A DNA stretch of 64,000 bases from an uncultured Candidatus Saccharibacteria bacterium (lineage in GTDB: Bacteria > Patescibacteriota > Saccharimonadia > CAILAD01 > BJGX01), in assembly GCA_964637185.1 (NCBI GenBank), contig CAZWVB010000002.1:1375-65374 (forward strand), given 5' to 3'. Positions 16,101 through 48,446 of the stretch are shown piece by piece. The translations under genes and the position numbers were made by a program. How positions within the stretch are numbered: position 1 is the stretch's first letter; each line of letters begins with the position of its first letter. The notes under the pieces were generated by a model, which had not been told where the DNA came from, made no database searches, and worked only from the letters and a program-made list of their open reading frames with translations.

Positions 16101-16128
16101 GTATAAGCGCTATTGAGCAGTGTTACAA

Positions 16129-18545: not shown

Positions 18546-18800
18546 CTATACATTGGCAAACAAGGTGACTACACCACTACGTACCCGCAATATGCCGCGC
18601 TCGAGATGAAATCGCCTCTTGCCATACGGTGTATCCAGACTGACTGGACCTTGGCTGATGATACTGACAAAGTTGGCATGTTCAGGTAATATATCAAACG
18701 TGCCCTGACTATTGGCTGCAGTCAAACTAAACGCTTCGCCTTCATAAAAAACCTCAAAAGGGGAGTAGAGTTTGACCAAAAAACGCTCAGTGCGATCCAT
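18546..18800 (-). CDS. F1-ATPase epsilon-subunit-like protein. Beta-sandwich domain only, 84 aa.
   Basis: Aligns to the epsilon N-terminal domain (…G.FDILPEHANF…GG.L.V…VT.LA). It follows the beta-like gene in the canonical alpha-gamma-beta-epsilon order. The C-terminal helical hairpin of canonical epsilon is absent. Confidence 0.65.
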   Translation of the reverse strand: MDRTERFLVKLYSPFEVFYEGEAFSLTAANSQGTFDILPEHANFVSIISQGPVSLDTPYGKRRFHLERGILRVRSGVVTLFANV

Positions 18801-18805
18801 ATTAT

Positions 18806-20131
18806 TTACTGTATGGTTAATATTTCCTCGACTGCTGCCAAAGTCTCTTCACGTCCCACGTACTGGCCCTGTTTGCCAGTCAGCGGCTGGGTTACAAACA
18901 GTGGCTGCTGAAATAGCTCAATCAAGCGTTTGGCCTTGCTATAGGCTTGGCGATCTTGTACTGACAATTCGGCTTCACCTATGATCGTGACTATTCCCTT
19001 CAAATCTTGATACTTCTGTAGCACTTTTTGAGCCTCCATAGCCAAGAAGTAGTGCTTCTCGCCTACTATTTCCGGACTTAGCAAAGAGCTACTTGTGTTG
19101 ACCAGATCTACTGCCGGCAGGATGCCTTGCTCCATAATTTCTCGGCTAAGCACAATTACACTGTCCAGTTGCTGGTATATCTCCACCACAGCTGGGTCCG
19201 ATAGATCATCGGCTGGTATATATATCGACTCCACGCTCGTGATAGAACCATTTTCATTCGAGTCAAGTCCTGCTTGAAATCGAGATAGGTCTGTGAACAG
19301 ACTAGGTTGATAGCCACCCTCGCTTAGTCTTTCACCACGCAGCATGGCCAGCTCATTGCCAGCCTGCAAAAATCTGTAGATATTATCAACGAAGAAAAGT
19401 ACATCGGTTTTTTCTTGATCCCGAAAGTGCCTGGCTGAAGCAGCTGCTATCTGGCCAACCAACCAACGACGAACTGCTGTCTCATCCATTTGACCCAGAT
19501 ACATTACTGTTGATTGCATCAACTTGGTTTCTTCAAGGGTCATGTACAGCTCATGTGCCTCTCTTATCCTCTCACCAATACCTGCAAATATCGAAACCCC
19601 TAGCTTGCGTTTGCAAACATTGTGCATCAATTCTGTGGTAAGTACTGTTTTACCAACTCCCGAGCCACCGACTATACCAATCTTGCGACCACGTACAAAT
19701 GGCGCCAAGAAATCAACCACCTTGATACCAGTCTCAAGTAAATCAGCACTAGCGCCATAACCTGATTTACCGGTATGCCGATAGGCTTCCAGCGGAAACA
19801 GTTGTGTTTTGTTATGATCTTCTGTGGACATCAGATTGTTGTGCTGACAATCCCAGACACCACCTAAAGCAGACTTACCGCTGCAAAAACTGATTGTATT
19901 TGTCGATGCCTCGACTACTTCACCTAGACCTATCTCGTCTTGGGTTCCAAGGCTTAGACACGTCACTCGTGTTGAATGCTGCTCAACCACCATAAGTTGT
20001 GTCATGTGCGTGTTCTTGGCAGTCAATAAAGCAAACTGGCTGAGCACAGGCATATTATTACTCCATTCGACCTCAACTAAAATATTATCGATTGCTACCA
20101 CTCTGCCGGTATTCATGATTGATAACTCCAT
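18806..20131 (-). CDS. F1-ATPase beta-subunit-like catalytic P-loop protein. Divergent, 441 aa.
   Basis: GRKIGIVGGSGVGKTVLTTELMHNV (canonical GGAGVGKTV). IFAGIGERIREAHELY (canonical VFAGVGERTREGNDLY). LFFVDNIYRF and GSITSVESIYIPADDLSDPA are also present. The DELSEED region is degenerate (EAELSVQD). Confidence 0.85.
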   Translation of the reverse strand: MELSIMNTGRVVAIDNILVEVEWSNNMPVLSQFALLTAKNTHMTQLMVVEQHSTRVTCLSLGTQDEIGLGEVVEASTNTISFCSGKSALGGVWDCQHNNLMSTEDHNKTQLFPLEAYRHTGKSGYGASADLLETGIKVVDFLAPFVRGRKIGIVGGSGVGKTVLTTELMHNVCKRKLGVSIFAGIGERIREAHELYMTLEETKLMQSTVMYLGQMDETAVRRWLVGQIAAASARHFRDQEKTDVLFFVDNIYRFLQAGNELAMLRGERLSEGGYQPSLFTDLSRFQAGLDSNENGSITSVESIYIPADDLSDPAVVEIYQQLDSVIVLSREIMEQGILPAVDLVNTSSSLLSPEIVGEKHYFLAMEAQKVLQKYQDLKGIVTIIGEAELSVQDRQAYSKAKRLIELFQQPLFVTQPLTGKQGQYVGREETLAAVEEILTIQ

Positions 20132-20946
20132 TGGTAAGCCAATGATTCAACATCTCTCCGCCGGCGCAAATAGACATTGAGCTGTCGTCTCGTTTTTTGA
20201 AGCTCAGCCTTAGCTGATTCACTAGCCCGAGACAAACTGTTGTACCTATACGCCAACTGCGAAAGAGTAGACTCGAGCACTATTTGAGTTACAGCTATCG
20301 AGCTCATAGTGCTTTCTAAATACTCAATCACTTCTTCAAGACTTGGCTCAAAAATGTAATCACTCGCAAACATCAGCTCGCTATCGGTACTGCTTGACTG
20401 TTTCTGCAAGCGAGCTACACTTTCATGTAATTCAAACGCCACAACTTGTTGCTCAGTGACTGATTCAAACCTAGCAAAATATAAGGTAACAGTCTTATAG
20501 CCAGATAGGTAGTTGATGATTGGCACCACATTGACCTTGGATTCCAAGCTTGGTAGATGAAATGACTTGCTGACTTCGACGTTGCGACTTGCCAAAAGCT
20601 GAGCCCCACGAGTGCCGATAGTCACAATGTCCGTAGAACGTGTCTTAATACCTTCTAGCATAGTTTGGATAATCTGCTCATCAAGCCCACTAGCAAAACT
20701 CAAGTCAGAACTGATTAGTACTGCCGTACTCCCCGATTTCGGAATTGTTTTTTTTGCCTTTGTGGGCACATCGATCCTCAACTGATCATACATAGCCCAC
20801 AGCTCATGAAAGAATTCCCTCGCCTGCAACACTCGGTCACGAATTTGGCGGATTTGCAGCGAGCTAATATTCTCATAAGCCTGTACTACCTGAGAAATTG
20901 TGCTTAAATCATTGAGTTGGGTCTGTAAATCTTGCAATCTTGCCAT
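20113..20946 (-). CDS. F1-ATPase gamma-subunit-like protein
   Basis: 277 aa. The N-terminal helix MARLQDLQTQLNDLSTISQVVQAYENISSLQIRQIRDRVLQAREF resembles gamma (…I.SV.NT.KIT.AMEMVAA.K.R…). It sits between the alpha-like and beta-like genes and overlaps the beta-like start by 19 nt. Confidence 0.7.
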   Translation of the reverse strand: MARLQDLQTQLNDLSTISQVVQAYENISSLQIRQIRDRVLQAREFFHELWAMYDQLRIDVPTKAKKTIPKSGSTAVLISSDLSFASGLDEQIIQTMLEGIKTRSTDIVTIGTRGAQLLASRNVEVSKSFHLPSLESKVNVVPIINYLSGYKTVTLYFARFESVTEQQVVAFELHESVARLQKQSSSTDSELMFASDYIFEPSLEEVIEYLESTMSSIAVTQIVLESTLSQLAYRYNSLSRASESAKAELQKTRRQLNVYLRRRRDVESLAYQWSYQS

Positions 20947-20947
20947 G

Positions 20948-22330
20948 TCAAATCTCCGGGTTACTCTTTAGCAAATCTTTGGCTAGTTCGCGATAATCCG
21001 ATTCTTTGGTATCTGGTTTTACCACGTCACCAATTACTGCTTTGAGCCACGATACATTTAGATTATTGGGTTCCTCGCTCAAAAAAATTGTTTCAAGCAT
21101 GACTCTTTGCATAGGCAAGGTATATGTGCCACCAAGGTCTTGTATGAAAAGCTCAAATAGTTTGCGACCTACAGCAAGGTTTTTTTGTGATGCAACTGAA
21201 AGTTTGGTATTAAATCTTGAATATGTCTCCACTTCCGAATATGCTGCGAGTGATTGTAGTATGCGTTCCGACATATTTTGATAGTAGGTGCTCTGCGCAC
21301 GGCCACCAACACGACTCACTGACAAACCTATATTGAGAGCCGGCCTGATACCTTGACGCATGGTCTTAAGGTCAAACACCAATTGACCATCGGCTGTCGA
21401 TATCATGTTGGTTGGGAAATACCCAGTCAAATCATCATTGGGCGTGGTAGCCACTGCAAAGGCAGTCAAACTCTTGCCGGTCTCGGCATTGAGTCCAGCC
21501 CTTTCTAGCAAGCTTGCGTGCACATAGAATAGATCGGCTGGATAACTTTCTCGCCCTGGCTGCATACCAAGTTGTAATGCCATTTCTCGATATACCTTGG
21601 CGTGAGTTGCTAGATCATCATAGACCACCATGACATCATTTTGCTGCCAATAATGTTCAGCCAGTGCACACCCAACAAAAGGCGCTAGGTATTGTAATAC
21701 TATATTGTCTAAGGCGTCGGCCACGACAATAATACTTCGATCCATTACGCCTGCTTGGTACAAACGAAAGGCTAATTTTTCAATATCTTGCTTGCGTTTG
21801 GCAATTTCTACAAATACAGCTATTGAATTGCTATTTTTTAAATGATGTATGGCTGCTTGGCTTAGCATACTTGATTTGCCAGCTTTGGCGTCACCAATCA
21901 CAGCTATCCTCTGGCCTTTGACAACTGGGAAAAGTGAATCGATGATTGTGACACCTGTTTCTAATTGTTGATTGACTAACCCTCGCTTATTGATTGGTAA
22001 CGCCTTGCCAAACACTGATTGCAAGACCAGCTCAGAACCCTTGTCTATTGACTCTTTTTGCAACAGGTCATAAACCTGATGGGTTTTCCCAAGTGTGTCT
22101 TTATTGATCTGCACTTGCAAGCTCCTAAACTGTGGCTTGATATGTTGGCTATCAATTCGTCCATCGGGAGTGAGCGAAAGGGCTTGAACAGTTTGTGCGC
22201 TTGCCTTGTGTACTAGAGCAGCAGCATTATCAGCCTGTATAGTCGCCTGTAAATGTATGCCTTCAATGGGCCCACTGGTCAGTATGTAGTCGTTGCTACT
22301 ATTTACTGATTGCTTTGTGCTCTCCTGCAT
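20948..22330 (-). CDS. F1-ATPase alpha-subunit-like P-loop protein. Divergent, 460 aa.
   Basis: GQRIAVIGDAKAGKSS (canonical GQRELIIGDRQTGKT). YLAPFVGCALAEHYW, VVYDDLATHAKVYREMALQLGMQPGRESYPADLFYVHASLLERAG match the alpha-subunit signature YLAPY.GCA.GE…[41 protein letters not shown]. Confidence 0.85.
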   Translation of the reverse strand: MQESTKQSVNSSNDYILTSGPIEGIHLQATIQADNAAALVHKASAQTVQALSLTPDGRIDSQHIKPQFRSLQVQINKDTLGKTHQVYDLLQKESIDKGSELVLQSVFGKALPINKRGLVNQQLETGVTIIDSLFPVVKGQRIAVIGDAKAGKSSMLSQAAIHHLKNSNSIAVFVEIAKRKQDIEKLAFRLYQAGVMDRSIIVVADALDNIVLQYLAPFVGCALAEHYWQQNDVMVVYDDLATHAKVYREMALQLGMQPGRESYPADLFYVHASLLERAGLNAETGKSLTAFAVATTPNDDLTGYFPTNMISTADGQLVFDLKTMRQGIRPALNIGLSVSRVGGRAQSTYYQNMSERILQSLAAYSEVETYSRFNTKLSVASQKNLAVGRKLFELFIQDLGGTYTLPMQRVMLETIFLSEEPNNLNVSWLKAVIGDVVKPDTKESDYRELAKDLLKSNPEI

Positions 22331-22331
22331 A

Positions 22332-23183
22332 TCAAACTCCTATTATTATGTATACGCCAGCAAAGGCGGCAAAGATTATTATTACTACTGCTAATATCAC
22401 TTGACCTAGACTGCGAAGTACAGCTGGTTTGGCCAGCGGATTGCGGCCTATGGAGCGTATGCTAGAAGTGACGGCCGAAAATAGCACTACCATAGCCGCG
22501 ATTGTCGATATCACTACCACCGCAAACGCCGCAGCGGCACGGATCGGTGTAAGCTTTTTACCAGCCAGGTTTGAACTAAGTGCTTGCAGACCAGTTAGCG
22601 CATTGTTGCCAGATTGGCTACCAGTCGGCTGGTATTGCCCAAGTTGAATATCAGAGTTAATTAGACCAATATCATAGCTGTGATTATCACCTTTGTTATC
22701 TGTTAGCTGACGACTGGTTTTGTTTTCCATATCGCTACTGCTAGACCTAGCAATGCCTACCAAAGTACCACTAGTTGTAGCTTTCATCGCCACCCCATCA
22801 ATAGGTGATAGAGTCAAACTATCACCAGGGCTGATTGGACCATTGATGTTACTTACCAAGATTTTGCTTGGTCCAGAGCTAGTCACCTGTACATTGCTAC
22901 CTGTCGGACTTACTGAGACGACGCCCTGCGTCACAGTACTAGTCACACCTACAATAGGTTGATTATTTTGGAGCGAGGCCGTCTCAACATTGGTCTGGCT
23001 GTTAGTAGCCAAGCTTACAATGGATCCAGCCGATATTGCGACTGAAGATGTATAGCCCTGAGTCACATTAGCAGCTACCGCCGGTACAGCAAAGAACATG
23101 CCTACAGCTACCATGGCACCCAACAACCTTATTCGAAACCAGCAAAACACCTGAGAACATGTGTTCTGCGAAACACTACTCAT
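22332..23183 (-). CDS. Signal-anchored Ser/Thr-rich ectodomain protein. Its C-terminal two-helix hairpin resembles an ATP-synthase c subunit but lacks the conserved carboxylate.
   Basis: N-terminal hydrophobic segment LLGAMVAVGMFFAVPAVAAN. About 190 aa of S/T/N/Q-rich sequence. C-terminal hairpin AAAAFAVVVISTIAAMVVLFSAVTSS-IRSIGRNPLAKPAV-LRSLGQVILAVVIIIFAAFAGVYIIIGV, with a polar loop (RNP) like the c-subunit RQP loop but no Asp/Glu in helix 2. It is immediately upstream of the alpha-like gene. Confidence 0.55.
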   Translation of the reverse strand: MSSVSQNTCSQVFCWFRIRLLGAMVAVGMFFAVPAVAANVTQGYTSSVAISAGSIVSLATNSQTNVETASLQNNQPIVGVTSTVTQGVVSVSPTGSNVQVTSSGPSKILVSNINGPISPGDSLTLSPIDGVAMKATTSGTLVGIARSSSSDMENKTSRQLTDNKGDNHSYDIGLINSDIQLGQYQPTGSQSGNNALTGLQALSSNLAGKKLTPIRAAAAFAVVVISTIAAMVVLFSAVTSSIRSIGRNPLAKPAVLRSLGQVILAVVIIIFAAFAGVYIIIGV

Positions 23184-23232: not shown

Positions 23233-23853
23233 CTACTTCCTAGTTTTGCCGGCTAGTTTTAGTATCAGCTCAATCAGAACGCCTAGCACACCGCCTAATA
23301 TCAGTAGTACCAATAGTAGCCAGTTCGGTAGCGGGTAACCATAGACTCGTGCTGCAAAATACACTACTAGTCCCATGCCTATGCCAACAACTGCGCCACC
23401 GATCAGTACGGAAGGACGCAGTATTGTTTTTTCGGCAGCATTACTAACTGTTTCTACAACAGGATTGTGAACAACTTTGGAAAAAGCCCTACTGCCAGCT
23501 GGCAACTGTGTTTGTATTTTGCCAAGTTCTTTTTTGTAGACGCGTTTTTGCTCGGCTTTGGTCAAAGGCGTCTTTGGCTTTTTCTCAACTTCCTTAGCTT
23601 TTTCAGACTTCTTTTCTTCGGCTTCTTTGGATTTTTCCTGCTTACGAGCTAGATCAGACTCTTTTTTCTCCAATTCCGCTTTTATCTTGCGTTCAGCAGC
23701 TTCTCCCTTGCGGGCTAGATCAGCTTCGTCACGTTTTTGTTCAGCCTTAGATTTTTCAGCTGATCGATTACGCTCAAGACTTTCGGAGCTACTTTTGGAT
23801 AGCTTAGCCTCAGATTCTTGTCGTTCTACTAATTTCTCTTCATCCGCCGCCAT
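23233..23853 (-). CDS. K/E-rich coiled-coil protein with two C-terminal transmembrane helices.
   Basis: 206 aa. About 110 aa of charged low-complexity sequence (EKKESDLARKQEKSKEAEEKKSEKAKEVEKK), then VLIGGAVVGIGMGLVVYFAARVY and LLLVLLILGGVLGVLIELILKLAGKTRK. The start overlaps the stop of the upstream gene by 1 nt. Confidence 0.5.
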   Translation of the reverse strand: MAADEEKLVERQESEAKLSKSSSESLERNRSAEKSKAEQKRDEADLARKGEAAERKIKAELEKKESDLARKQEKSKEAEEKKSEKAKEVEKKPKTPLTKAEQKRVYKKELGKIQTQLPAGSRAFSKVVHNPVVETVSNAAEKTILRPSVLIGGAVVGIGMGLVVYFAARVYGYPLPNWLLLVLLILGGVLGVLIELILKLAGKTRK

Positions 23854-26210
23854 TACTTGCCGCCTCCCTCATTTAGTGTTTCTAGTAAATCTAGCTCACG
23901 CTTCATGAGACGATTCTTAAGCAGTAAGAATATCGACATGGCAGCAAGTAAGCCCATCACTATCAGACTAGCCGCTGCGCCTGTTCGCGGTAATTGAGCA
24001 GCAGTACAGTCAAGCCTCTTGGCTGGGTTCACACTAATCGGAGTCACCACTACATTGCCCTCAAATCGATCTTCCATCTGACAATCGTAGTTCTGATTAT
24101 CGGTTGGCTTTTGTGCAGTTGTTGGGATTGGATCTTTGACTTGTACGGTAAAGCTCTTAGTGATATATGTCGGATCATTTGGGTTGGTACTGACAGGTAT
24201 GTCTACAGCAGGCCAGACCAGTGAAGTTCTTGTAGCTTCTACTTTCAACTCCGCGCCGCCTTTATCTATCACATCGGCATACATGATGATATCTGAGATA
24301 TCGTCTTTGAATATATAGCCTTTGATGGGAGCAGTACCTATATTGGCAAGACCAATAGTATAGGTTAGCTTGTCTCCTGCTCTAGCCGTAGCACCGTTAG
24401 CATCAGTCGGTTTACCATCACTTGTCAATATGGTTAGATTCTTGACAGTCTTGCGGAACACATGCTGCTCAAACTTCAGTGGTAGCGTACAGGTCGGCTT
24501 GCTAGAAGTCACTGACCCATCAGCTCCAACAACTGTTACTTTGGCTGTATAGCTACCTCCATTCTGATAAGTGTGCTTGATATCTTTGATCTCAAGAGCG
24601 CCACTTGTCACTGTTTGCTTGCCACCATCTCCGAAGTCAAACTGGTATTCCTTGATAGTGGTGTTGAGCGCACCTCCTCGAGCTGTGAAATTGACGTCTA
24701 CAGGAACAGTATCACTGGTGGTGGGTGTGCCAGTGAGACTGACACAAGTAATATCTTTCGGCTGAGGTGTGACTACAAAAGGTACTCCACAGCTTGGCCT
24801 GTCTGGTGCAGGATTGCCGTTCACGCTATCATACACTCGTAATAGTATCAGATAACTACCTGGAGCGGTGGTTTCAAACTGAGTCGCACTAAAACCGGCT
24901 GGATTCTGAGAATTTGCTAATGGGTCTACCAGGGTATTTTGGGTTGGGAAGGTGTGGATTATTCTTGATTTTGCTTCTTGATATGTTTTGCCGTTTTGCG
25001 TATACGTCGGCCCTGCTGTGCCTGCGGGCACCTCCTTGAGGTATAAGTATTCAAATTTTCGAGCGAATACATCTGGTCCAATTTGCCCTTCTTGGAGCGC
25101 TGTACCTTTGATAAATGGTGTAAATGGTGCTTGGAACGTAAAGTTGTTGTTCTGATTGGCCATGTCCAGCCCACCACACACTAGGGTCTTAGGAGCCTGC
25201 ACCTGTACATCTCGCGAACATTCTCCTGTACCACTTCCGGAGGCAAAATATTTAACGCCATTTACATCGAAGAACACTACTAATCTGATCTGATAATTAC
25301 CAGGCTGATTGAATTTGAAAACCCTGAGTGTACCGTCTTCAAAAACTCCAGGCGACTTTTGACCAACGCCACTTGCGGATTGAAGTGGTGGGCTCACTTG
25401 GCTATCAGTAACCAGTTGGCCATCCTTGTACACTCCATACGCCATATCAACCAATTCACCTGGATCCACATTCTGACCATTGGCATAACCTCTATAGCCA
25501 ATCTCTGATCCAGCCGCGATAGGCCCAGGCACAGTGTAATTTAATGAGGCACAGCTAATTTCCTTGGGTGGTGGAGGTGGTGGTACTGGCAAAAGAATAA
25601 TATTACCACATTCTAGGATGACTCCCCACTGATACCATCCTTCAGGTATGCCAGGCCCACCATCTGTTACGTGGACAATTTGGCTTGGATCAGTACCACC
25701 CATAAGCGCATTAAAACATATACCGTCATTGGCATTTGGATTACCCCAGCGATGTACCGATGATCCTACCCAAATATTTGGCTGCCATTCTACTGAAGTG
25801 TTGCCACCATCTTGGCTACGACCCATGGAAATCCAGTTGTCACCCTCACGTGCGCCCCCTCCGTTTGGGCCACAAACTGAGACTCCAGCTGCCTGCATCT
25901 TTTCTCGGCTGATACCAAGCCGACCAAAAACTTGATTAATTCCGTCACGATTCTGATCCCAAACCGCCGATATAAGCGAGTCTTTATTGAAAGGGGCACC
26001 TGTTATCAGGTCAAAGGGGCTTGCTGCAAAGCTTGGTTTGGGCGGAGCTAGAAGTGTAAATATTTGGAACAGCAAAAGCCCGATAATAAATATGCTAGCG
26101 ATACGTCTGGTAGCAGTCTCGGCTACTAGACGTTTTATATAGTAACCAATACGATCTGGTGACAGTCGCCCAGCAGACACCGAAGTCACAATATCTTTAA
26201 AGTTTATCAA
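23853..26210 (-). CDS. LPXTG (LPRTG) cell-surface protein with PKD-like and DUF11-like repeat domains.
   Basis: 785 aa. N-terminal signal-anchor (IASIFIIGLLLFQIFTLLAPP). PPPPPP linker. PKD-type motif (YQFDFGDGG…TYQNGGSYTAKVTVV). DUF11-like segment (LTYTIGLANIGTAPIKGY). C-terminus LPRTGAAASLIVMGLLAAMSIFLLLKNRLMKRE. Confidence 0.7.
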   Translation of the reverse strand: MINFKDIVTSVSAGRLSPDRIGYYIKRLVAETATRRIASIFIIGLLLFQIFTLLAPPKPSFAASPFDLITGAPFNKDSLISAVWDQNRDGINQVFGRLGISREKMQAAGVSVCGPNGGGAREGDNWISMGRSQDGGNTSVEWQPNIWVGSSVHRWGNPNANDGICFNALMGGTDPSQIVHVTDGGPGIPEGWYQWGVILECGNIILLPVPPPPPPKEISCASLNYTVPGPIAAGSEIGYRGYANGQNVDPGELVDMAYGVYKDGQLVTDSQVSPPLQSASGVGQKSPGVFEDGTLRVFKFNQPGNYQIRLVVFFDVNGVKYFASGSGTGECSRDVQVQAPKTLVCGGLDMANQNNNFTFQAPFTPFIKGTALQEGQIGPDVFARKFEYLYLKEVPAGTAGPTYTQNGKTYQEAKSRIIHTFPTQNTLVDPLANSQNPAGFSATQFETTAPGSYLILLRVYDSVNGNPAPDRPSCGVPFVVTPQPKDITCVSLTGTPTTSDTVPVDVNFTARGGALNTTIKEYQFDFGDGGKQTVTSGALEIKDIKHTYQNGGSYTAKVTVVGADGSVTSSKPTCTLPLKFEQHVFRKTVKNLTILTSDGKPTDANGATARAGDKLTYTIGLANIGTAPIKGYIFKDDISDIIMYADVIDKGGAELKVEATRTSLVWPAVDIPVSTNPNDPTYITKSFTVQVKDPIPTTAQKPTDNQNYDCQMEDRFEGNVVVTPISVNPAKRLDCTAAQLPRTGAAASLIVMGLLAAMSIFLLLKNRLMKRELDLLETLNEGGGK

Positions 26211-26279
26211 TGAAGTACCCTCATTAGTATTTGTATTCGATTGTATTACGAATCATAAGCTGGTTGCAAGCCCTGGCGG

Positions 26280-28784
26280 CTAATTATGAGAACTGTCACG
26301 ACCCATACCGCTACTGACAGCCTGACCAACTTGTGGGTCGCCATAGCTCCCACTATCCAGACTATGCATTATCTCGGCTGCTACTTCGCTCTTGGGCCGG
26401 CCGTACTTGCTACGCGACAAATCCTTCATAGCCTGTAGTATCTCAGGGTTGGGAGTGCCGATAGGGGGCTGACAATCGAGTGAAAATGGTGTGGTCGGCA
26501 CACCATTGGCCATGATTTTAGCAACTAGCTTGAAATTGGGTATATTGATCAGATCGTGTTTGTCGAATTGTGGCTGGTACTGCTTCTCCATGTACTCGGC
26601 ATCATCAGTACCAACACGAAAGGACGTCAGTGAACCAACATTGCCAAACACGGCATCGCGGACCTGCTCATCCAACTGGCTAATAAACTGATTGGCAACT
26701 ATCAGGCTCAGGCGGTATTTGCGAGCTTCAGACAAAATGGTGGCAAAACTATCTGTGCTAAAATTCTGGAATTCATCGACATAGACCGAGAAGTCTGGTC
26801 GTTGTTCCTCGGGAGTATCAGCCCTACTCATGGCTGCCATCTGGAATTTGATGACCATAATCATACCCAGCAGCTTGGCGTTGAGATCACCAAGCAGACC
26901 TTTGCTGAGATTTACCAGCAATATTTTGTTGGTGTCCATCACCTCACGGAATTTGAATGCCGAGTGCTTCTGACCAATGATGTTACGCATGATCTCATTG
27001 TTGGCAAACGCACCGAATTTGGATACAAACCAGCCTAGCATCTCAGATTTGCTATGCGCATCAGTCTGAGCCATCTCGCCGGTCCAGAAATCCTGTACTG
27101 TCGGGTCAGTGACATAGCGGAATTTTTTCTTGAGATACTCGTCATCAGTAAACACTTTGGGTATCTCGATAAAAGTGCCGCCTTCTGGATCGGCCATCAC
27201 TGTAAGAGCGGCATTGCGAAACCAGTGTTCGTAGCGAGGCCCGATAATACCTTGATGCTGAGGGTCATACAGTTTGTACAACATTTGGATTGCTTCTTGG
27301 ATCAAGAAGTCCTTTTGCTCTGGCTTGTCTGGATCGTACTCCATCATATTAAATCCGAGCGGTACCTCGGTATCACCGGGGCTAAAGTAGATGACATCCT
27401 CTGCTCGCTCTGGTGGGATCATACCCAACATCTTCTCGGCAGTATCACCGTGAGGGTCGATAAAAGCAAACCCTTTGCCAGCCGCTGCATCTTGCAACAT
27501 CAGATTCTCTAGGAAGGTTGATTTACCAGTACCTGTTTGACCTATGACATACAGATGGCGTCGACGATCATTGTCACTCAGATAGATTGGGGTTTGGGTG
27601 GCACGATAAACATTGGTACCCAATAAGAGACCCGTCGCTGGCATGCCGCTCGGTGCAGCGATCTCCTTGGTGCCGCGTCGCTCTATCGGGGTAGCAAGCT
27701 CGAGCAACTCACTTGGTATATGAAATATAGTTGCGAGCTCGGCGGAGTTGAGAATTAACTGATGGGCAAAAAAAGTTTTCTCACGAAAAAAACGGAAAAT
27801 AAAGTTTGTCGCAAGCTCCTGTGGCGAGTCAGCTTTGACGAACTTAAAACGGTTAGCATCATACTGTGCCAATTGTGCAAAACCAAGTAGCATGTCCTGC
27901 AATATCAGCTTGGCTCGAGCAGGATCGTCTGAGCTAGCTACTAGCCGGATATTACACTCAAATGCCGGTAGACGCACCTTATCCTCCACCAGCTCGCCTC
28001 GTTTTTTGTCTAGCTCATTGGGTTCTTTGCTTTTCTTCTCATCTTCTTTTGTGCCAAGAGGTGATCGTATAACATCACCAGCAAAATCCAAAGCTTGTGG
28101 AGCAAATCCCTGTTTCTTTTTGGTGAAGTAATATTTGGCTCGACGATGTGCTCGTTTGACCCAACGGTAGGGGGCTGGACGTACCAATATTTGTATAGCC
28201 GCAGCATCACCAGCATCTAGATTGGACAAGCCAGCCAGCATGCCGGCGATCGCATCGCGCTCGGCGGTCTTATAAGTGCTGATGGGCAAGATGGCATCCT
28301 TAGCCAATTTGAGCTCACCGCCAGTCACACCGGCGATCTTGCTCACCTGGGAAAATAGATTGATTTCTTCTTTGCGTATCACCTGTACACCAGGGTAGCC
28401 TGCAGCTAAAGCTTTAGATATGGTGGATATCAAACTAGCCGGCACCGAAGTGTAAAAGTAGATCTGCTTGGCTTCTGCTATTATTTCAAATGCTATATGT
28501 CTACGGCCATAAACCTCAGCTTTTTCACTTACAATACCTGAGAGCAAATTGAACATCTGCTCCGCTCGAGACACGCTCTCTTTGATCATCTCACGTTCAT
28601 CACGATTTTGTGCTTCATTGATTTCTTGAGGTGGTAATTTTATCAAGAGTGGTACAAACTTCAACGAGCGCTCGACTTGCTTGCTGTGACGCACGATGCG
28701 ACGGTAGACGAAGAAACCAACAAAAATCAGTACTACCACAAACAGAGCAAACAAAACACTCATGAAGATCACAAATTGGTTCAT
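26280..28784 (-). CDS. Membrane-anchored P-loop NTPase of the VirD4/TraD/HerA-FtsK-like (AAA_10/TraG-D_C type) family.
   Basis: 834 aa. N-terminal TM helix (MNQFVIFMSVLFALFVVVLIFVGFFVY). Walker A HLYVIGQTGTGKSTFLENL followed by FIDPHGD. Walker B FSVYVDEFQNF. The architecture (TM helix + about 400-aa spacer + ATPase) resembles conjugative coupling proteins. The start overlaps the upstream gene by 4 nt. Confidence 0.6.
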   Translation of the reverse strand: MNQFVIFMSVLFALFVVVLIFVGFFVYRRIVRHSKQVERSLKFVPLLIKLPPQEINEAQNRDEREMIKESVSRAEQMFNLLSGIVSEKAEVYGRRHIAFEIIAEAKQIYFYTSVPASLISTISKALAAGYPGVQVIRKEEINLFSQVSKIAGVTGGELKLAKDAILPISTYKTAERDAIAGMLAGLSNLDAGDAAAIQILVRPAPYRWVKRAHRRAKYYFTKKKQGFAPQALDFAGDVIRSPLGTKEDEKKSKEPNELDKKRGELVEDKVRLPAFECNIRLVASSDDPARAKLILQDMLLGFAQLAQYDANRFKFVKADSPQELATNFIFRFFREKTFFAHQLILNSAELATIFHIPSELLELATPIERRGTKEIAAPSGMPATGLLLGTNVYRATQTPIYLSDNDRRRHLYVIGQTGTGKSTFLENLMLQDAAAGKGFAFIDPHGDTAEKMLGMIPPERAEDVIYFSPGDTEVPLGFNMMEYDPDKPEQKDFLIQEAIQMLYKLYDPQHQGIIGPRYEHWFRNAALTVMADPEGGTFIEIPKVFTDDEYLKKKFRYVTDPTVQDFWTGEMAQTDAHSKSEMLGWFVSKFGAFANNEIMRNIIGQKHSAFKFREVMDTNKILLVNLSKGLLGDLNAKLLGMIMVIKFQMAAMSRADTPEEQRPDFSVYVDEFQNFSTDSFATILSEARKYRLSLIVANQFISQLDEQVRDAVFGNVGSLTSFRVGTDDAEYMEKQYQPQFDKHDLINIPNFKLVAKIMANGVPTTPFSLDCQPPIGTPNPEILQAMKDLSRSKYGRPKSEVAAEIMHSLDSGSYGDPQVGQAVSSGMGRDSSHN

Positions 28785-29232
28785 GACTTATTCTCGGGTG
28801 ATGTATCAACATCTAAATTAAACCGTTTTTTCAAGTACGCTCTATTGAGCTCTTGTTGTGCACGCTCTTCTACTTCTGGGTCATCTTGGGTTTTGGCAAT
28901 TGTATCATCCACCACATCCACCCACTCTTTTTCGATCATGCCCACATCTTCAGCTGGAAGATTGGCAGTTTTTTGCTGAATTACAGCAGCAACCGGATCG
29001 CGTGATTGTTGATTGGTGACTACTTGAGATGCCGTTGGTTGCAATACCTGCGCTGTTGCAGGCGCTGGAGGAACTGTACTGGGCGCAGGCTGTTCAGCGG
29101 CCACTGGTGCTTGCTCAACACGCGTCGGCAACTGCTCAGAATTTGGAGCTTGCTCAGGCTTGATAGCACTGGGCACTTGCTCAACCGGCAGATTTAATTT
29201 TTTTTCATTGGAGTTGGTTGATGGAGGCATAA
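28781..29232 (-). CDS. Small Pro/Gln/Ala-rich protein with an acidic conserved C-terminus. Translationally coupled to the downstream P-loop ATPase.
   Basis: The ORF extends to 29467, but that would overlap the upstream L,D-transpeptidase gene by 180 nt. The internal ATG at 29232 (MPPSTNSNEKK…) removes the overlap. The C-terminus EKEWVDVVDDTIAKTQDDPEVEERAQQELNRAYLKKRFNLDVD ends 4 nt inside the ATPase start. Confidence 0.4.
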
Positions 29233-29286
29233 TACAGACAATTTCCCTATGCTGAATTATACCAGTTATGGTTGTAGCTTGTGAAG

Positions 29287-30768
29287 CTAGTAGTGTATCC
29301 AGACTGGGGTACCAACTGGTGCCCAATTCCAAAGAAATGCTGCTGTTCCCGTCAACAGATTTACACAGCCGTGGCTGCCATTGTAGTGATATGCCTGGGT
29401 GCCGAACCACGACGGTGGTCGCCATGTTGCATCGTGCAGCCCATATCCGCCAGAGAATGGCATCCAATAAGATACAAATACATTGTAGTCATAGCCATAG
29501 ACAGCACCATTCAGATAGCGATTGCGTTCTTTGGTGTATATAGCAAATTGGCCCGTGACGGTTGGTGCGCCATCTTTGCCACTCACCACTGGGGCCGTCA
29601 TTACTACCTGGCCATTTTGCCAGGCGTAAAGTTGCTGATTGCTAAGATTAATCTCTATATACTGAGGATAATCCAGCCCGCCGATAGCCCCGCCAATGCG
29701 TTTGTATTCTGTTTTGTATGGCACTGGCGAGCTGCTAAGCGCAACAGTGGTGTTTTGGTTGTTGATAATAGCGGTATAGATAGCATCGGCCGCGGCAGAC
29801 TGATTGATAGCAGAACCGTCCTTACCGGCCTGTGTCTCTGACTCTTGCCCATTTAGCACGGTTATCTTACGGTTGGTAGGCGGTATATCCACCTGATTGG
29901 CTACAGATTGCAGATAGCCTAATATCTCAGCCTTGGATATATCAACCTTAAGTGCTTTCTGGCTGCCTTCTACCGAAGGCTCAAATACCAACCAATGCCC
30001 GATGTCGGCTCGACTGGGTGAAAAACTACGACCATTGTAGTTGAGAATATAGTTGCGACTCAAATAATTGTTGGTCTGGCTAAGGGCAGCTTCAGCAATT
30101 GACTTATTTATCGGCGCCTGAATAGCGGTAGGCCCAATGCTCACTGTAGTGTCACGCCCATCAGCCATTGCGCTGGTCAACACATTGGCTAACTGGCTTG
30201 GATCAATAGCAATTCCTGGTTGATCAGCAACTACACTAGGGTTACCATCCTCTATAACGATGGTGGCATTGACAGGATCCTTGCCCTTTTCCCCAACGGC
30301 CGCTGTTGCAAATTTCTTGAGTTGTGCCTGGTCAAATCTATAAGCTAACCCCAATTGCCCACGCTTGTGCATATCTAACAAACCAGTAAGTGCTATTGGG
30401 CCATTACGACCGACACTATAAGCTAGATCAGCTGTCTGAACTGGATCATAGCTAGCACCAAAATCACTGTTATTGGCTATTATTGCCTCATTACCAACCT
30501 TTACTGTAACGGTTCGAGTACCAGACTTCTTGCGTAGTAGTTCAATAGCCTGAGCTCTGGTTTTAAAACTCAGATCTGTGCCTGCCACACTCACGCCAGG
30601 ATATATCACACCAGAAGTAACACTAGCCACCACCGCATTGGCTAACACTAAAGTTCCTATCACTCCTAACAACACAAAAGCCAAACGGGCATATAGGTGA
30701 GGCTTTTGGCCGGATTTACTAAGCCCCTTGGGCAAACTCAAAAAATGTTTATAAGCAGGCACAGTCAT
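29287..30768 (-). CDS. L,D-transpeptidase (YkuD-family catalytic domain) with N-terminal membrane anchor and YoaR/VanW-like domains.
   Basis: 493 aa. N-terminal TM (LAFVLLGVIGTLVLANAVVASV). The C-terminal catalytic motif …YVFVSYWMPFSGGYGLHDATWR…GSHGCVNL (His…SHGC) is typical of YkuD L,D-transpeptidases. Confidence 0.75.
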   Translation of the reverse strand: MTVPAYKHFLSLPKGLSKSGQKPHLYARLAFVLLGVIGTLVLANAVVASVTSGVIYPGVSVAGTDLSFKTRAQAIELLRKKSGTRTVTVKVGNEAIIANNSDFGASYDPVQTADLAYSVGRNGPIALTGLLDMHKRGQLGLAYRFDQAQLKKFATAAVGEKGKDPVNATIVIEDGNPSVVADQPGIAIDPSQLANVLTSAMADGRDTTVSIGPTAIQAPINKSIAEAALSQTNNYLSRNYILNYNGRSFSPSRADIGHWLVFEPSVEGSQKALKVDISKAEILGYLQSVANQVDIPPTNRKITVLNGQESETQAGKDGSAINQSAAADAIYTAIINNQNTTVALSSSPVPYKTEYKRIGGAIGGLDYPQYIEINLSNQQLYAWQNGQVVMTAPVVSGKDGAPTVTGQFAIYTKERNRYLNGAVYGYDYNVFVSYWMPFSGGYGLHDATWRPPSWFGTQAYHYNGSHGCVNLLTGTAAFLWNWAPVGTPVWIHY

Positions 30769-30801: not shown

Positions 30802-33531
30802 CTAGCAGACTTTGATATCAGCCAGAGATTCTAATTGAGATAATTTTGCGATAAATTTTTGTACGGCAGCATTGATATTCTTGGCATCAGGTTTTTCGCC
30901 AAGGTCCATTACTAGCTGTATGGTAATTCTTTTGCGGCGCTCTTTTTTGAGCTCGTCATCTTGATACTCACCAATATATTTCGCAATCACGATATCGCTT
31001 TGTTTGACAGCTACTGTACTAAAATCTTGCCATAACACTAACTGATTGCATTCCACCGTCAAATCCCTAAGCACGAGAGGGTAAGCAGGTAACTTTCGAA
31101 TAGTACGCTCTACCACCTGACTTCGCAAATCAGCAATATTGATTTCCAAATATGATAGCTCACGACGCACACCAAACGCAGTTGATACACGTGGATGTAG
31201 TTGTCCTATCACGCCTATCTCATGACCTTGATATTTAACAATCGCCTGACGGCCCTTTATCATGTCAGGGCGGTCACTACGATGCAACAGGCTATTATCA
31301 AACCCAATTTTATCTAACACGGCTTTGAGCCTGGTGTAGCTATCACTGCCAAAAGAAGTGGCTGCCAATGCCCAATTCTCACCAACTTTTGTGGGTTTGT
31401 TGAGCCAACTTTGTATTCTTGAGATCTCAAAAAATAGTCCGGATTCAGTGTCGGCTTGATTATTGCGAACCACCTGTAGATGACTTGGCATCAAACTAGT
31501 GCGGATCAAAGCCTGTTCTTTTTGCAACGGGTTGGCAACTGCTAGCGCATTATCAATATTTACACCAACCATATTTAGTGCCTCTTCAGATACAAAAGAG
31601 TATGTTACAACCTCTTGAGCTCCAATGTCTACCAACTGCTGTTTAAGTCTAAGAATATTAATAAGCTGCTGATGAGAGCCTGTCGGGGTAGGTGGCAAAC
31701 TTGGCAAAGTGTCAGGCATATTATCATAGCCGACTATTTTAACTGATTCCTCTATCAAGTCTTCTTCCAACTTGATGTCACTACGCCACCACGGCACCTG
31801 GACGGCTATGATATGGTTGAAACTATCCAAATATCTACGGGCCCCGATGTAGCCTCGACGTTGCTTAAATTCCTGCAAAGATGTATATCTTACTTTGCCA
31901 ACACTTTTTTTGGCTTCTATAACCTTATTGCTACCCAAAAACATGGCTACATGGCTGACATTGTGACGCTGTTTGGCCAATTTGGGGTCACTGATGCCAC
32001 CTGCTACAAACAACAGATCACCTGGCTTGAGTCTATCTCCGTCAGTAAGCTCACGACCGTTGGTAGACTGCTGATAAGCACTGTGGCCTATCATCAAACC
32101 TAGCTTGGAGTAAATCCGCTCGGTTAGGTAGCTACAATCAAATGCTTCCTCGCCATCCACTTTATACGACGCACCCCACTTATATGGTTTGCCGAGGTGT
32201 TTTTTGGCCTCAGCTGTCAGCGAGAAATGCTCAGCTTCAAAGCCACGCTTTGTCAGGCCATCCAAGATTTGTTTTTCATCCACCTCCATGCCTAGTATCT
32301 TCTCAGCCCGGCGCATTCGCATTGCAGCCAGCTGGACCCAAGGCCAGACATACAATTGATCGTGCGGTGCCTCAAGCATCTCAGCATCACAAATTTCGGT
32401 CATCAATTCTACTAGTCGATTGGCAGCGACCGGTTGAAGGGGGAGTGGTAAGCCGCGCTCAAATCTAGAGCTTGCTTCGGTGCGCACACTATTACGTAGC
32501 GCCGATTTACGCACGACAGTTTTATCAAAATTTGCCACTTCTAAAACCACCTCTGTGGTGTTCGTATCGCATTCGGTATCACTGCCACCGATCACGCCAG
32601 CAATGCCAACGACCTTTTTACTATCGGCTATTACCAAGTCATCTTTCACCAGTTGACGCGTTTTACCATCCAAGCAGGGAAGTGACTCGCCAGCTTTTGC
32701 CCATCGTACCTGCAGATCGTCTTGTAGTTTATTAGCATCGTAGGCATGGCTGGGCTGCCCATATTCCAACATTACAAAATTGGTAATATCAACCACTGGG
32801 TTGATACTACGTAGCCCGTTTGACTCCAAGTTATCCACAAGCCACTTGGGTGTTGGCTTGGCATTGTTTAACTTAAGATGCACCGTAATCATCCTGCTGC
32901 AAACTTTGGTATCCTCTATTTTTACTCGCTCTTTTTTATCGTAGTCCAAGTCCTCCTGCTTGGGTTCTGCCAACTGGCACGGCCTATGGGAATTGGCCGA
33001 AATTTCACGGGCCAATCCAATCAATGACAAGGTATCCCAACGATTCGGATGGGTCTTGATGTCCAGGATATCTCCAAAATTCTCTATGTCGCACAATGAT
33101 TTACCAAGCGGTAGGTCAGGGGAAAGTTCCATCAGCCCGTTGTGGTCATCGTTAATACCAAGCTCTGCTGCCGAGCACAGCATGCCCTCGCTCAGCTCGC
33201 CACGAATCTTAGCTTTGGCTATTTTGGTTTGGTCGGGCAACACTGCGCCAACTTTTGCCAATACCACAATTTGATCTTCTGCTAAATTGGGTGCGCCACA
33301 CACAATGTGATAGGTTTTTTTACTGTCGGTCACTAGCGCTAGCCTCAGTCGATCGGCATTTGGATGTGGGTTTACTTCCAATACTTGTGCAACTATTACA
33401 AGCTCGTCCCAGATCGGTGGCTTGATTACTTCTTCAAGTTCGATTTCTGTTCGTTCTATAGCCTGCGCAATTTCATCAGTGGATAAGGCTGGCTTGAGAT
33501 ATTTATTGAGTGAATATATGCTGATTTTCAT
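30802..33531 (-). CDS. pheT: Phenylalanine--tRNA ligase beta subunit, carrying a ~130-aa NlpC/P60-like insertion in the B5 domain.
   Basis: 909 aa. N-terminal tRNA-binding and B3/B4 regions. The B5 signature is split: …ILDGLTKRGFEAE [insertion] …VQVPWWRSDIKLEEDLIEESVKIVGYDNMP. The insertion KPYKWGASYKVDGEEAFDCSYLTERIY…GDLLFVAGG…SHVAMFLGSNKVIEAKK has the NlpC/P60 Cys…His…polar arrangement. The C-terminal FDX-ACB-like domain is present. Confidence 0.85.
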   Translation of the reverse strand: MKISIYSLNKYLKPALSTDEIAQAIERTEIELEEVIKPPIWDELVIVAQVLEVNPHPNADRLRLALVTDSKKTYHIVCGAPNLAEDQIVVLAKVGAVLPDQTKIAKAKIRGELSEGMLCSAAELGINDDHNGLMELSPDLPLGKSLCDIENFGDILDIKTHPNRWDTLSLIGLAREISANSHRPCQLAEPKQEDLDYDKKERVKIEDTKVCSRMITVHLKLNNAKPTPKWLVDNLESNGLRSINPVVDITNFVMLEYGQPSHAYDANKLQDDLQVRWAKAGESLPCLDGKTRQLVKDDLVIADSKKVVGIAGVIGGSDTECDTNTTEVVLEVANFDKTVVRKSALRNSVRTEASSRFERGLPLPLQPVAANRLVELMTEICDAEMLEAPHDQLYVWPWVQLAAMRMRRAEKILGMEVDEKQILDGLTKRGFEAEHFSLTAEAKKHLGKPYKWGASYKVDGEEAFDCSYLTERIYSKLGLMIGHSAYQQSTNGRELTDGDRLKPGDLLFVAGGISDPKLAKQRHNVSHVAMFLGSNKVIEAKKSVGKVRYTSLQEFKQRRGYIGARRYLDSFNHIIAVQVPWWRSDIKLEEDLIEESVKIVGYDNMPDTLPSLPPTPTGSHQQLINILRLKQQLVDIGAQEVVTYSFVSEEALNMVGVNIDNALAVANPLQKEQALIRTSLMPSHLQVVRNNQADTESGLFFEISRIQSWLNKPTKVGENWALAATSFGSDSYTRLKAVLDKIGFDNSLLHRSDRPDMIKGRQAIVKYQGHEIGVIGQLHPRVSTAFGVRRELSYLEINIADLRSQVVERTIRKLPAYPLVLRDLTVECNQLVLWQDFSTVAVKQSDIVIAKYIGEYQDDELKKERRKRITIQLVMDLGEKPDAKNINAAVQKFIAKLSQLESLADIKVC

Positions 33532-45976: not shown

Positions 45977-46003
45977 AGCATTACGATTTCTGCCATAATT
46001 TTT

Positions 46004-46747
46004 GTGTGCGCCAATGCTCGTTTGTATTTCAAACTTTTTTTAAGCAAAATAATATTCATGCAAATTTCACTCGTCATCCCCGCCCACAACGAAGCCGAAT
46101 ATATAGGCCGATGTTTGGCCGCGGCGTCAGCCCAATCGCAGCCGTTTGCCGAAATAATTTTGGTCGACAACAATTGCGCTGACAAGACTATTGAAATCGC
46201 CCGCCACATGCAACTCAAAAATTTGCACGTAGTTCGTGAAAACAAACAAGGCATCGGCCATGCCCGCAGCGCAGGATTTGACGCGGCTCGTAGCGACATT
46301 ATTGCCCGCATAGATGCCGATACTATCCTACCAACAGATTGGAATAAGCAAATATTAGCTGATTTTGACCAAGAAAAGCCCGATGCTATCACCGGCCCAG
46401 CCTACTTTTATGATTTCCCGCGTATTGTGCGACCTGCTATCACCTGGTTGCACATACGTCTCTACTTCCACCGCACCGCCCAAATGATGGGCAGCCCGAC
46501 CCTGTGGGGCTCAAACATGGCAATTACCAAGGCTATGTGGCAGCGAGTTAAGCCCAAAATTACTGATGACGACTCGCTGGTGCACGAGGATGTCGATCTT
46601 GCTCTCCAAATTCACCGTGCTGGCGGCAACATATACTTCGACCCGAAGCTCCTAGTGGGTGTCAAAATGCGTCAGCTCTACAGATCACCACGCAATACTA
46701 TCGCTTACTTCCGCCGGCGCCGCACTACCATTGAGCGCAGCAAGTAA
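46004..46747 (+). CDS. Glycosyltransferase family 2
   Basis: 247 aa. ISLVIPAHNEAEYIGRCL, VDNNCADKT, ARIDADTIL (the DxD-type region). GC is elevated relative to the upstream housekeeping genes. Confidence 0.7.
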   Translation: MCANARLYFKLFLSKIIFMQISLVIPAHNEAEYIGRCLAAASAQSQPFAEIILVDNNCADKTIEIARHMQLKNLHVVRENKQGIGHARSAGFDAARSDIIARIDADTILPTDWNKQILADFDQEKPDAITGPAYFYDFPRIVRPAITWLHIRLYFHRTAQMMGSPTLWGSNMAITKAMWQRVKPKITDDDSLVHEDVDLALQIHRAGGNIYFDPKLLVGVKMRQLYRSPRNTIAYFRRRRTTIERSK

Positions 46748-46843
46748 CTGCTTACGCTGTACCAGCCCTGGCTTATCTGTTAGACTAGCGCAAGCGAAAT
46801 CGTTCGCCAAACCCGCAAGTTCACAACCGAAAGAGAGATCATC

Positions 46844-47341: not shown

Positions 47342-47366
47342 GTCGGCTCACAACAGGAGAAACACC

Positions 47367-48266: not shown

Positions 48267-48446
48267 TCTCTGACCAACCTGCGGGTAGGCCGAGCGTCTG
48301 GGATAGCATCCCGGAGGCTCGGCCACCAGCCTGAGTATTCAAATCCGCTGTCCAGCGAATTGAATCTTCAGGTTGAAATAACTATGTTGTAAATACGACG
48401 TCAGCCCCCAGCGGGAGGCGGACGCCTGCTTGCTAGGGGCTGTTGA

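Follow-up and report, generated by a model that had tools for sequence, protein, structure and literature searches.

A membrane-anchored coupling-protein-type ATPase and its small partner form a conserved chromosomal pair in Patescibacteria

A 64,000-nucleotide stretch of contig CAZWVB010000002.1 from an uncultured Candidatus Saccharibacteria bacterium (the window) encodes an 834-aa membrane-anchored ATPase directly behind a small open reading frame (ORF). The ATPase combines a conserved, catalytically intact motor of the type IV coupling protein (T4CP) type with a single membrane anchor and a folded N-terminal domain that it has in common with conjugative coupling proteins; it has a small partner protein and is inherited vertically. 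Its essentiality comes from published data on Southlakia epibionticum by way of positional orthology and not from our own analysis. In our judgment, there is about an even chance that the pair represents an orphan, essential coupling-type ATPase with its adaptor, which couples or energizes the chromosomal, relaxase-less type IV secretion system (T4SS) that this lineage encodes elsewhere. Patescibacteria depend on host bacteria, and before theirs no T4SS had been reported as essential for its own carrier. No coupling protein has so far been assigned to the T4SS of Patescibacteria, and the one T4CP homolog in the literature was dismissed as non-essential. The ATPase family described here is a second paralog, anchored by a transmembrane (TM) helix, and together with its small partner it is a testable candidate for T4SS powering or substrate choice.

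A preliminary description of the window had reported an 834-aa ORF with one N-terminal TM helix and Walker A and B motifs, all of which are present in the sequence. It had also located the ORF pair correctly, apart from an end at 29232 that lies 2 nt beyond the ATG of the small ORF at 29230. Kyte-Doolittle hydropathy indicated a single TM segment within aa 1-33 (peak, 3.29) followed by the basic stretch RRIVRHSK, and the N-terminal helix comprises aa 2-41 in a full-length AlphaFold2 (AF2) model, which was built with 35 homologs in the alignment and has a mean predicted local distance difference test score (pLDDT) of 82. Under the positive-inside rule, most of the protein would be cytoplasmic. 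The motifs are GQTGTGKST (aa 415-423), FIDPHGD (aa 441-447), and VYVDEFQNF (aa 667-675), and residues G415-K421, D443, P444, G446, D670, E671, F672, Q673, and N674 are invariant among 35 homologs of 50-65% identity. The ATPase is 100% identical to a public protein (P0001) with a precomputed PF26449 (DUF8128) assignment, and the G+C content of its gene is that of its flanks.

Several comparisons placed the motor close to TrwB of plasmid R388 (reference TrwB and TrwK sequences were taken from NC_028464.1). The ATPase family profile aligned to TrwB with an hhalign probability of 96.5% (E = 9.4e-10, aa 400-706), and the alignment spanned the all-helical insertion, which in the model consists only of helices over aa 489-617, between Walker A and Walker B. 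When PDB sequences were searched with the ATPase profile, TrwB was recovered first (3e-8), followed by DotL (6e-6), with HerA far lower. Foldseek of the model gave target-normalized TM-scores (TMt) of about 0.62 for TrwB and 0.54 for Cag-beta; the top matches of the full-length model were VirB4 chains (E = 4.8e-16). Pfam matches were weak and spread over T4SS-DNA_transf, DUF87, TraG-D_C, and AAA_22: T4SS-DNA_transf scored above its cut-off (24.0 bits versus 20.1), TraG-D_C just below (21.9 versus 22), and TrwB_AAD_bind also below (17.4 versus 20.5), DUF87 was weak, and AAA_10 was unmatched. All NCBIfam TraD/VirD4 coupling-protein models remained far under their cut-offs (for example, 38 bits versus 366), and the weak NCBIfam matches include the CD1115 family. 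The earlier assignment to VirD4/TraD/HerA-like P-loop ATPases therefore holds, and hhalign, Foldseek, the PDB profile search, and Pfam sharpen it to a TrwB/VirD4-type coupling-protein motor. Judged from its sequence, the ATPase would descend from, and would work like, a coupling protein. It has the motor of a T4CP, its genomic context is not that of a T4CP, and its anchor and N-domain are unlike those of classical VirD4/TrwB. It is best filed in the DUF8128/long-T4CP family, which has been catalogued and noticed in bulk in the literature and is uncharacterized.

Sequence and context spoke against four other assignments. For VirB4 at the sequence level, the Pfam VirB4/CagE/TrbE, AAA_10, and TraG P-loop models were unmatched, NCBIfam VirB4_plasma scored 15.7 against a cut-off of 590, and the hhalign probability with TrwK was 10%. 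FtsK_SpoIIIE scored 19.9 against 24 and aligned only at the P-loop, and the ATPase has one TM helix, not a 4-TM N-domain. HerA proteins in the PDB matched at 0.009-0.39, PADLOC HerA models aligned only to short stretches (1e-3 to 5e-6), and a NurA or effector neighbor is absent. The motor core (aa 397-711) did match PADLOC mad8 of the MADS defense system better than any HerA defense model (61.9 bits, E = 1.7e-17); mad8 covers only the motor/P-loop core, other mad genes are not nearby, and the neighboring proteins have no PADLOC hits.

Between the TM helix and the motor, the preliminary description had seen a spacer of ~400 aa. This region is instead a conserved and confidently folded domain, with a pLDDT of 78 and a predicted TM-score (pTM) of 0.79 when modeled alone and 32 invariant columns in its alignment. 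A Foldseek search of the PDB with this N-domain returned 14 matches at E ≤ 1e-3, all of which were TrwK/VirB4 chains (best, 3.5e-6; worst, 7e-4; query-normalized TM-score (TMq), 0.41-0.46), and the next match had an E-value of 9e-3 and a probability of 0.2. At the profile level, the N-domain aligned to the T4CP of an Embleya plasmid (hhalign, 97.6%) and to a VirD4-like protein of phage SP8 (97.2%). Its profile matched 3572 cluster representatives among 1.84 billion, and the domain always lay at about residues 35-390. As the local Pfam copy had no DUF8128 model, the DUF8128 assignment is the precomputed annotation of the identical public protein; PF26449 is precomputed in P0001 and in 119 of the 120 homologs listed. 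The domain analysis turns a 'DUF' into a VirB4-N-like module that is common to Gram-positive plasmid coupling proteins and Bacillus phage proteins.

The preliminary description had also proposed that the ATPase is translationally coupled to a small P/Q-rich protein, and here the evidence agrees: the TGA of the small ORF overlaps the ATG of the ATPase gene by 4 bp, as ATGA, and the pairing is conserved across genomes. In a phmmer screen, the small ORF was found 5′ of the ATPase gene in 32 loci, with a median gap of 6.5 nt and overlapping genes in 9 of them, and it was the only neighbor of the ATPase conserved in every lineage examined. The first 95 aa of the window protein contain 17% P, 15% A, and 13% Q. 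Across Saccharimonadia, this P/Q/A-rich N-terminal half is hypervariable and is followed by a C-terminal motif, D.IEKEWV..K.I...T..DPY....(8)...YLKKRYG, with an invariant Pro and a near-invariant Tyr in the alignment. Searches of Pfam, NCBIfam, PADLOC, and PHROG with the small partner were all empty. The promoter-like site in front of the small ORF had the top score (11 of 12) when 18-35.5 kb of the window were scanned for sigma-70-like sites. We consider it most likely that the small partner is an adaptor or regulator of the ATPase.

Relatives outside Patescibacteria were found on plasmids and in phages. Using tblastn, we obtained matches in 644 plasmid records, mainly from Bacillus, Streptomyces, Staphylococcus, and archaea. 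The Embleya plasmid T4CP (WP_331738717.1), which is annotated as a T4SS conjugative DNA transfer protein and has one TM helix, is 27% identical to aa 93-773 of the ATPase (E = 4e-66); its gene is flanked by those for VirB4 (AAA_10/TraG P-loop) and Replic_Relax, with TrbL/VirB6-like, PrgI/VirB3, and NlpC/P60 genes nearby. A Bacillus subtilis plasmid 'DUF87 domain-containing protein' (WEZ26732.1) is 25% identical to aa 97-774 (E = 9e-41) and adjoins the TcpC, TcpD, and TcpE genes. Full-length homologs were also present in 49 phage records, nearly all of Bacillus phages and including phage G gp156, and phrog_5156 matched aa 58-807 of the ATPase (E = 2.3e-83). This PHROG family is formed by SPO1-like Bacillus phages and phage G; the SP8 homolog, QPX71692.1, is encoded at L089:3965-6685. 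Because homologs occur in Gram-positive plasmids and Bacillus phages, the arrangement of TM helix, DUF8128, and T4CP motor is not specific to Patescibacteria but is a monoderm coupling-protein type.

Within Patescibacteria, the family is widespread. We recovered 6598 homologs of the ATPase at E ≤ 1e-5, and the best 120 of these are full length and 50-100% identical; among these 120, those with a source name are from Patescibacteria or Saccharibacteria. A scan of GTDB with one genome per species gave at least 591 species genomes with a relative. The best 80 of these loci are Patescibacteria by record title. Most belong to Saccharimonadia; relatives with 40-44% identity come from Microgenomates and Parcubacteria, among them Curtiss-, Davies-, Levy-, and Staskawiczbacteria. 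The few records with other taxon labels were taken as mislabeled metagenome-assembled genomes (MAGs). The C-terminal tails are P/A-rich and vary from about 25 to about 750 residues. Patescibacteria carry two ATPase paralogs, one anchored by a TM helix, which we label 'type A', and one without a TM helix, and in at least one genome the two are encoded in tandem (L062:1128-6163). The ATPase and its partner are a vertically inherited chromosomal core module, not the remnant of a mobile element.

Published data connect this module to an essential function. T4SSs of Patescibacteria are of the monoderm MPF-FATA (mating-pair formation) type and nearly always lack a relaxase; VirD4-type T4CP homologs are present in 2,918 of 3,035 genomes and total 5,713, of which only 148 are found near virB4, and relaxases number 109 in the 3,035 genomes (Quinonero-Coronel et al, 2025; PMC12102498). 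The same authors called 'the' S. epibionticum t4cp homolog non-essential and raised exaptation. The essential T4SS cluster of S. epibionticum has no recognizable coupling protein (Wang et al, 2023; PMC10633639), and Tables S1 and S2 of that study contain two T4CP-like genes, SEML1_0293 (NE/NE/NE) and SEML1_0142 (ES/ES/ES). In the accompanying transposon sequencing (Tn-seq), SEML1_0142 is one of 61 class I genes, with insertions decreasing from 114 (input) to 11 (T0), and the tables count it among the core families and the Patescibacteria-enriched ones (PMC10633639). Ahead of it is a 139-aa small ORF, SEML1_0141 (GD/ES/ES), for which no insertions were recovered; behind it are two convergent genes, DUF5353 and DUF11, both non-essential, with gyrB and gyrA next in line. 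Both SEML1_0142 and SEML1_0141 are absent from the main text (PMC10633639). As two convergent, non-essential genes separate SEML1_0142 from gyrB, a polar effect on gyrB is unlikely. We took SEML1_0142 and SEML1_0141 as positional orthologs of the window pair, since their genes lie in the order found across Saccharimonadia and the P-loop boundaries agree (381-800). The published non-essential 't4cp homolog' appears to be only the dispensable paralog, SEML1_0293. The same genome encodes VirB4 (SEML1_0008), an essential FtsK of canonical type (SEML1_0096), and an F1Fo operon that is canonical and dispensable (PMC10633639).

From these elements, a working model can be drawn. The single TM helix would hold the ATPase at the cytoplasmic face of the membrane, where the DUF8128 module would probably dock on membrane partners by analogy with VirB4. 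The RecA-like motor with its helical insertion would form a ring, hydrolyze ATP, and recruit and push substrate, as suggested by TrwB and VirD4. The small partner, coupled to the ATPase at the translational level via the ATGA overlap, would act as the adaptor or regulator, and the ATPase would serve a T4SS encoded elsewhere in the genome.

We compared the surroundings of the pair in 86 distinct related loci (80 from the GTDB scan, L001, L003, L087, L088, and two places without DNA; L002 duplicates L001). The gene order in Saccharimonadia is RmuC, TrpRS, PheS, PheT, YkuD, small ORF, ATPase, gyrB, gyrA, and a phmmer screen placed gyrB after the ATPase gene in 57 of 83 loci. In about 31 loci, PKD/DUF11 and 'p206' genes intervene between the two, mostly on the opposite strand (convergent in about 26). 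Outside Saccharimonadia, the neighbors are unrelated housekeeping genes (ribonucleotide reductase (RNR), cobalamin adenosyltransferase, Ddl, NUDIX, AddA-like helicase-nuclease, SpoIID). For the window itself, the reported neighbors, an L,D-transpeptidase upstream and LPXTG and F1-like genes downstream, were confirmed. Here, the ATPase, PKD, and F1-like genes share one strand and are tightly packed: 69 nt separate the ATPase gene from the PKD gene, and from there on, through alpha, gamma, and beta to epsilon, neighboring genes overlap or lie a short distance apart. Operon structure was read from spacing and consensus scans, which detected a promoter-like site inside the 69-nt gap (26211..26279) and no terminator-like site on the minus strand after the ATPase gene.

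The preliminary description had taken the ATPase to be co-operonic with the F1-like module and had suggested an export or assembly machine in which a hexameric translocase works next to an F1-like rotary head, here together with the LPXTG surface protein; by its own account, this proposal would fall if homologs proved to be coupling proteins within complete T4SS loci and if the linkage were missing from related genomes. Co-orientation and tight packing hold in this genome, as does the lack of a minus-strand terminator-like site, and the gene order recurs in L087 (65% identity) and in L006 and L009 (52%). The linkage is nevertheless lineage-specific, as only four lineages (the window, L087, L006, and L009) have the cassette: the F1-like genes are missing from the other 82 of the 86 loci, including L088 (61%), L001 and L004 (59-60%), and all loci outside Saccharimonadia, and the cassette has a much narrower distribution than the ATPase family. 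Saccharimonadia mostly have gyrB-gyrA after the ATPase gene, so that a machine of translocase and rotary head is not supported. The promoter-like site within the 69-nt gap and the convergent orientation of the PKD/p206 pair relative to the ATPase gene in about 26 loci also speak against it, and the PKD/DUF11 and DUF5353 orthologs of S. epibionticum are non-essential whereas the ATPase is essential. Moreover, complete conjugative T4SS loci on an Embleya (Actinobacteria) and a Bacillus plasmid have full-length homologs as their coupling proteins. We regard the rotary-head machine as very improbable; the F1-like cassette is an accessory insertion confined to certain lineages, and the genes it moves with are those of the PKD/p206 surface proteins, not that of the ATPase. 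An integrated conjugative element for DNA transfer, of which the ATPase would be a remnant or an active part, has hardly any credibility left. It could draw on the conjugative plasmid coupling proteins as closest characterized relatives and on the weak Pfam and NCBIfam matches to T4SS-DNA_transf, TraG-D_C, TraD, and the CD1115 family. Against it, relaxase, integrase, VirB4, and other transfer genes are absent from the window and the related loci (as had been stated for VirB4, VirB6, and relaxase, which were not found among window ORFs scanned with Pfam), the gene keeps its chromosomal position across the class and 40-65% sequence identity throughout the phylum, its G+C content is native, relaxases are rare among the 3,035 surveyed genomes (PMC12102498), and the positional ortholog is essential in S. 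epibionticum.

A more serious competitor is that the ATPase and its partner were exapted into an essential membrane motor that works independently of any T4SS, with only a historical conjugative ancestry; we consider this possible, though clearly short of probable. It might translocate DNA, RNA, or protein, either for housekeeping or to obtain macromolecules from the host. Such a motor would fit with the 148 of 5,713 T4CP homologs found near virB4 and the exaptation raised by the authors (PMC12102498), and with the housekeeping neighbors in every lineage examined (gyrB/gyrA, PheRS, and YkuD, or RNR, Ddl, NUDIX, AddA-like, and SpoIID); the gyrBA synteny is, however, confined to Saccharimonadia and may be inherited gene order. 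The presence of a canonical, essential FtsK in S. epibionticum makes a simple replacement of FtsK unlikely, viability is intact after comEC deletion (PMC12857230), so that essential DNA uptake is unlikely, and no gene for an alternative channel or substrate was found conserved beside the pair in the loci examined. We rejected as a sign of T4SS independence the genome prevalence of 96% for T4CP versus 80% for VirB4, because by our own arithmetic about two T4CP paralogs per genome together with MAG incompleteness explain the gap. Several observations weigh against coupling to a T4SS, and two of them, the phage homologs and the class I call, also favor the independent motor. By phmmer, a weak test, neither the window nor any of the 86 related loci had a T4SS gene within 10 kb, and Embleya VirB4, VirB6-like, and PrgI queries, again a weak test, retrieved nothing T4SS-like in the related loci; for this organism, the T4SS search covered the 64-kb window. 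The full-length homologs in large Bacillus phages without a T4SS imply that the architecture can work outside a T4SS. In S. epibionticum, class II holds VirB4, PrgI, and most of the remaining T4SS genes, whereas SEML1_0142 belongs to class I (essential at T0; PMC10633639), which is enriched in information processing, although raw insertion depletion is similar for SEML1_0142 and the T4SS genes. The orthology of SEML1_0142 was assigned by synteny and domain boundaries, not by sequence comparison, and only homology and shared essentiality tie the ATPase to the T4SS. Finally, the N-domain profile had no sequence signal with TrwK (hhalign probability, 0.07%), and the likeness of the modeled N-domain to VirB4 would be structural only, with a TM-score below 0.5. 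Weighing these points, we still hold the coupling or energizing of a T4SS encoded elsewhere at even chances. We more tentatively entertain a joint reading in which the ATPase and its small partner form an essential, Patescibacteria-specific membrane motor, either (a) as the missing coupling/energizing ATPase of the T4SS or (b) as a T4SS-free mover of macromolecules for the epibiotic lifestyle; as part of this same tentative reading, a VirB4-like N-domain joined to a VirD4-like motor would place the ATPase, along with its relatives in plasmids and phages, midway in evolution between the two T4SS ATPase families.

Coordinates of the features of the ATPase locus in the window.
Feature	Position	Strand	Basis or remark
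Gene for the 834-aa membrane-anchored coupling-protein-type (T4CP-like) ATPase with DUF8128 N-domain	26280..28784	(-)	ORF call, ATG start
N-terminal transmembrane helix (about aa 4-27) and following basic stretch	28704..28775	(-)	Kyte-Doolittle, AF2 model
N-domain (aa 36-382), Pfam DUF8128, VirB4-N-terminal-domain-like fold	27639..28679	(-)	Model, Foldseek, hhalign
RecA-like motor domain with inserted all-helical domain (aa 383-810), TrwB/VirD4 type	26355..27638	(-)	hhalign, Foldseek, Pfam
Walker A, GQTGTGKS (aa 415-422)	27519..27542	(-)	G415-K421 invariant in 35 homologs
Walker B, VYVDE (aa 667-671)	26772..26786	(-)	D670 and E671 invariant in 35 homologs
Gene for the 149-aa small partner, with a disordered P/A/Q-rich N-half followed by a conserved C-terminal motif of ~55 aa (IEKEW..DP..YLKKRF)	28781..29230	(-)	
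Promoter-like site TTCACA-18-TATAAT with extended -10 TG, immediately 5′ of the small ORF	29256..29285	(-)	Consensus match only, not evidence of function
YkuD L,D-transpeptidase, upstream of the small ORF	29287..30768		
LPRTG-anchored PKD/DUF11 protein, 785 aa, downstream of the ATPase gene	23853..26210		
F1-like cassette: 283-aa membrane protein (p283), alpha (460 aa), gamma (277 aa), beta (441 aa), epsilon-like (84 aa)	18546..23183	(-)	

The F1-like cassette contains no genes for a, c, b, or delta subunits, and no subunit reached the NCBIfam cut-off for atpA, atpD, or atpG. With the Mycoplasma MSC_0618 F1-like model, beta scored as high (372 bits) as with atpD (375.5). Because S. epibionticum has a separate canonical F1Fo operon, the cassette is probably an extra F1-like ATPase that is not coupled to Fo. 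Our literature search found no paper on an F1-like ATPase cassette in Patescibacteria. Surface-protein genes flank the cassette on both sides. Upstream (23233..26210 (-)), the LPRTG-anchored PKD/DUF11 protein is accompanied by p206, a 206-aa charged coiled-coil protein with a TM hairpin whose S. epibionticum counterpart is annotated as DUF5353. Downstream (10617..18474 (-)), two fiber-like proteins of 781 and 1827 aa carry Peptidase_S74 chaperone domains, YadA head repeats, and an H-type lectin domain. This arrangement suggests that the cassette and its flanking surface proteins are a surface-structure module.

Other features of the window were noted in passing. PheT (909 aa; 30802..33531 (-)) has an NlpC/P60 (and Peptidase_C92) domain of the cell-wall hydrolase type inserted at aa 447-570, between B3_4 and B5; the insertion is also present in L001, L087, and L088 and absent from the 776-aa PheT of L003. 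At 46001..50000, the G+C content is 0.55-0.57, as compared to about 0.44-0.49 elsewhere in the window, and long ORFs overlap on both strands; Rfam detected no rRNA there, and genes for a purE-like AIR carboxylase and a histidine phosphatase are present. The only Rfam match in the window is a tmRNA gene (50505..50885 (-), 115.5 bits). A 720-aa protein (1233..3395 (-)) without a Pfam match starts with a signal-peptide-like segment, continues as a repetitive body rich in N/S/G/T, and ends in a hydrophobic anchor.

Among known systems, TrwB (R388) and VirD4 have a nucleotide-binding domain with an inserted all-alpha domain that is homologous to the motor of the ATPase. TrwB itself is a 507-aa protein with two N-terminal TM helices and no DUF8128/VirB4-like N-domain, and it is encoded beside its relaxase, whereas the ATPase has one TM helix. 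The pLS20 coupling protein p48 likewise has two TM helices (PMC8557374), as opposed to one in the ATPase and in the Embleya homolog. TrwK/VirB4 (R388) has a two-domain architecture in common with the ATPase, but its motor aligns to the ATPase profile only at the P-loop (hhalign probability, 10%), and a bona fide VirB4, SEML1_0008 in S. epibionticum, exists separately from the DUF8128 ATPase. The proteins of phrog_5156, phage G (gp156), and SP8 have an N-domain and motor like those of the ATPase at only 21-23% identity, in phages that have no T4SS. SEML1_0142 shares with the window the order of small ORF, ATPase, DUF5353/p206, and DUF11/PKD genes and a P-loop domain that starts at about aa 381; it differs in its length (1019 aa, with a longer C-terminal tail), in the convergent orientation of the PKD/p206 pair, and in the lack of an F1-like cassette behind it. 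The small partner may play a role like that of the accessory proteins of other coupling proteins. The closest resemblance is to the MPF-FATA-type coupling proteins of the Embleya and Bacillus plasmids, in which both N-domain and motor are homologous over about 680 residues, with similar length and domain order. These sit in transfer operons with VirB4, VirB3/PrgI, VirB6-like, TcpC/D/E, and relaxase-type genes, whereas the window gene is chromosomal, has no T4SS neighbor, and is distinguished by a dedicated small partner, a vertically inherited family, and an essential positional ortholog.

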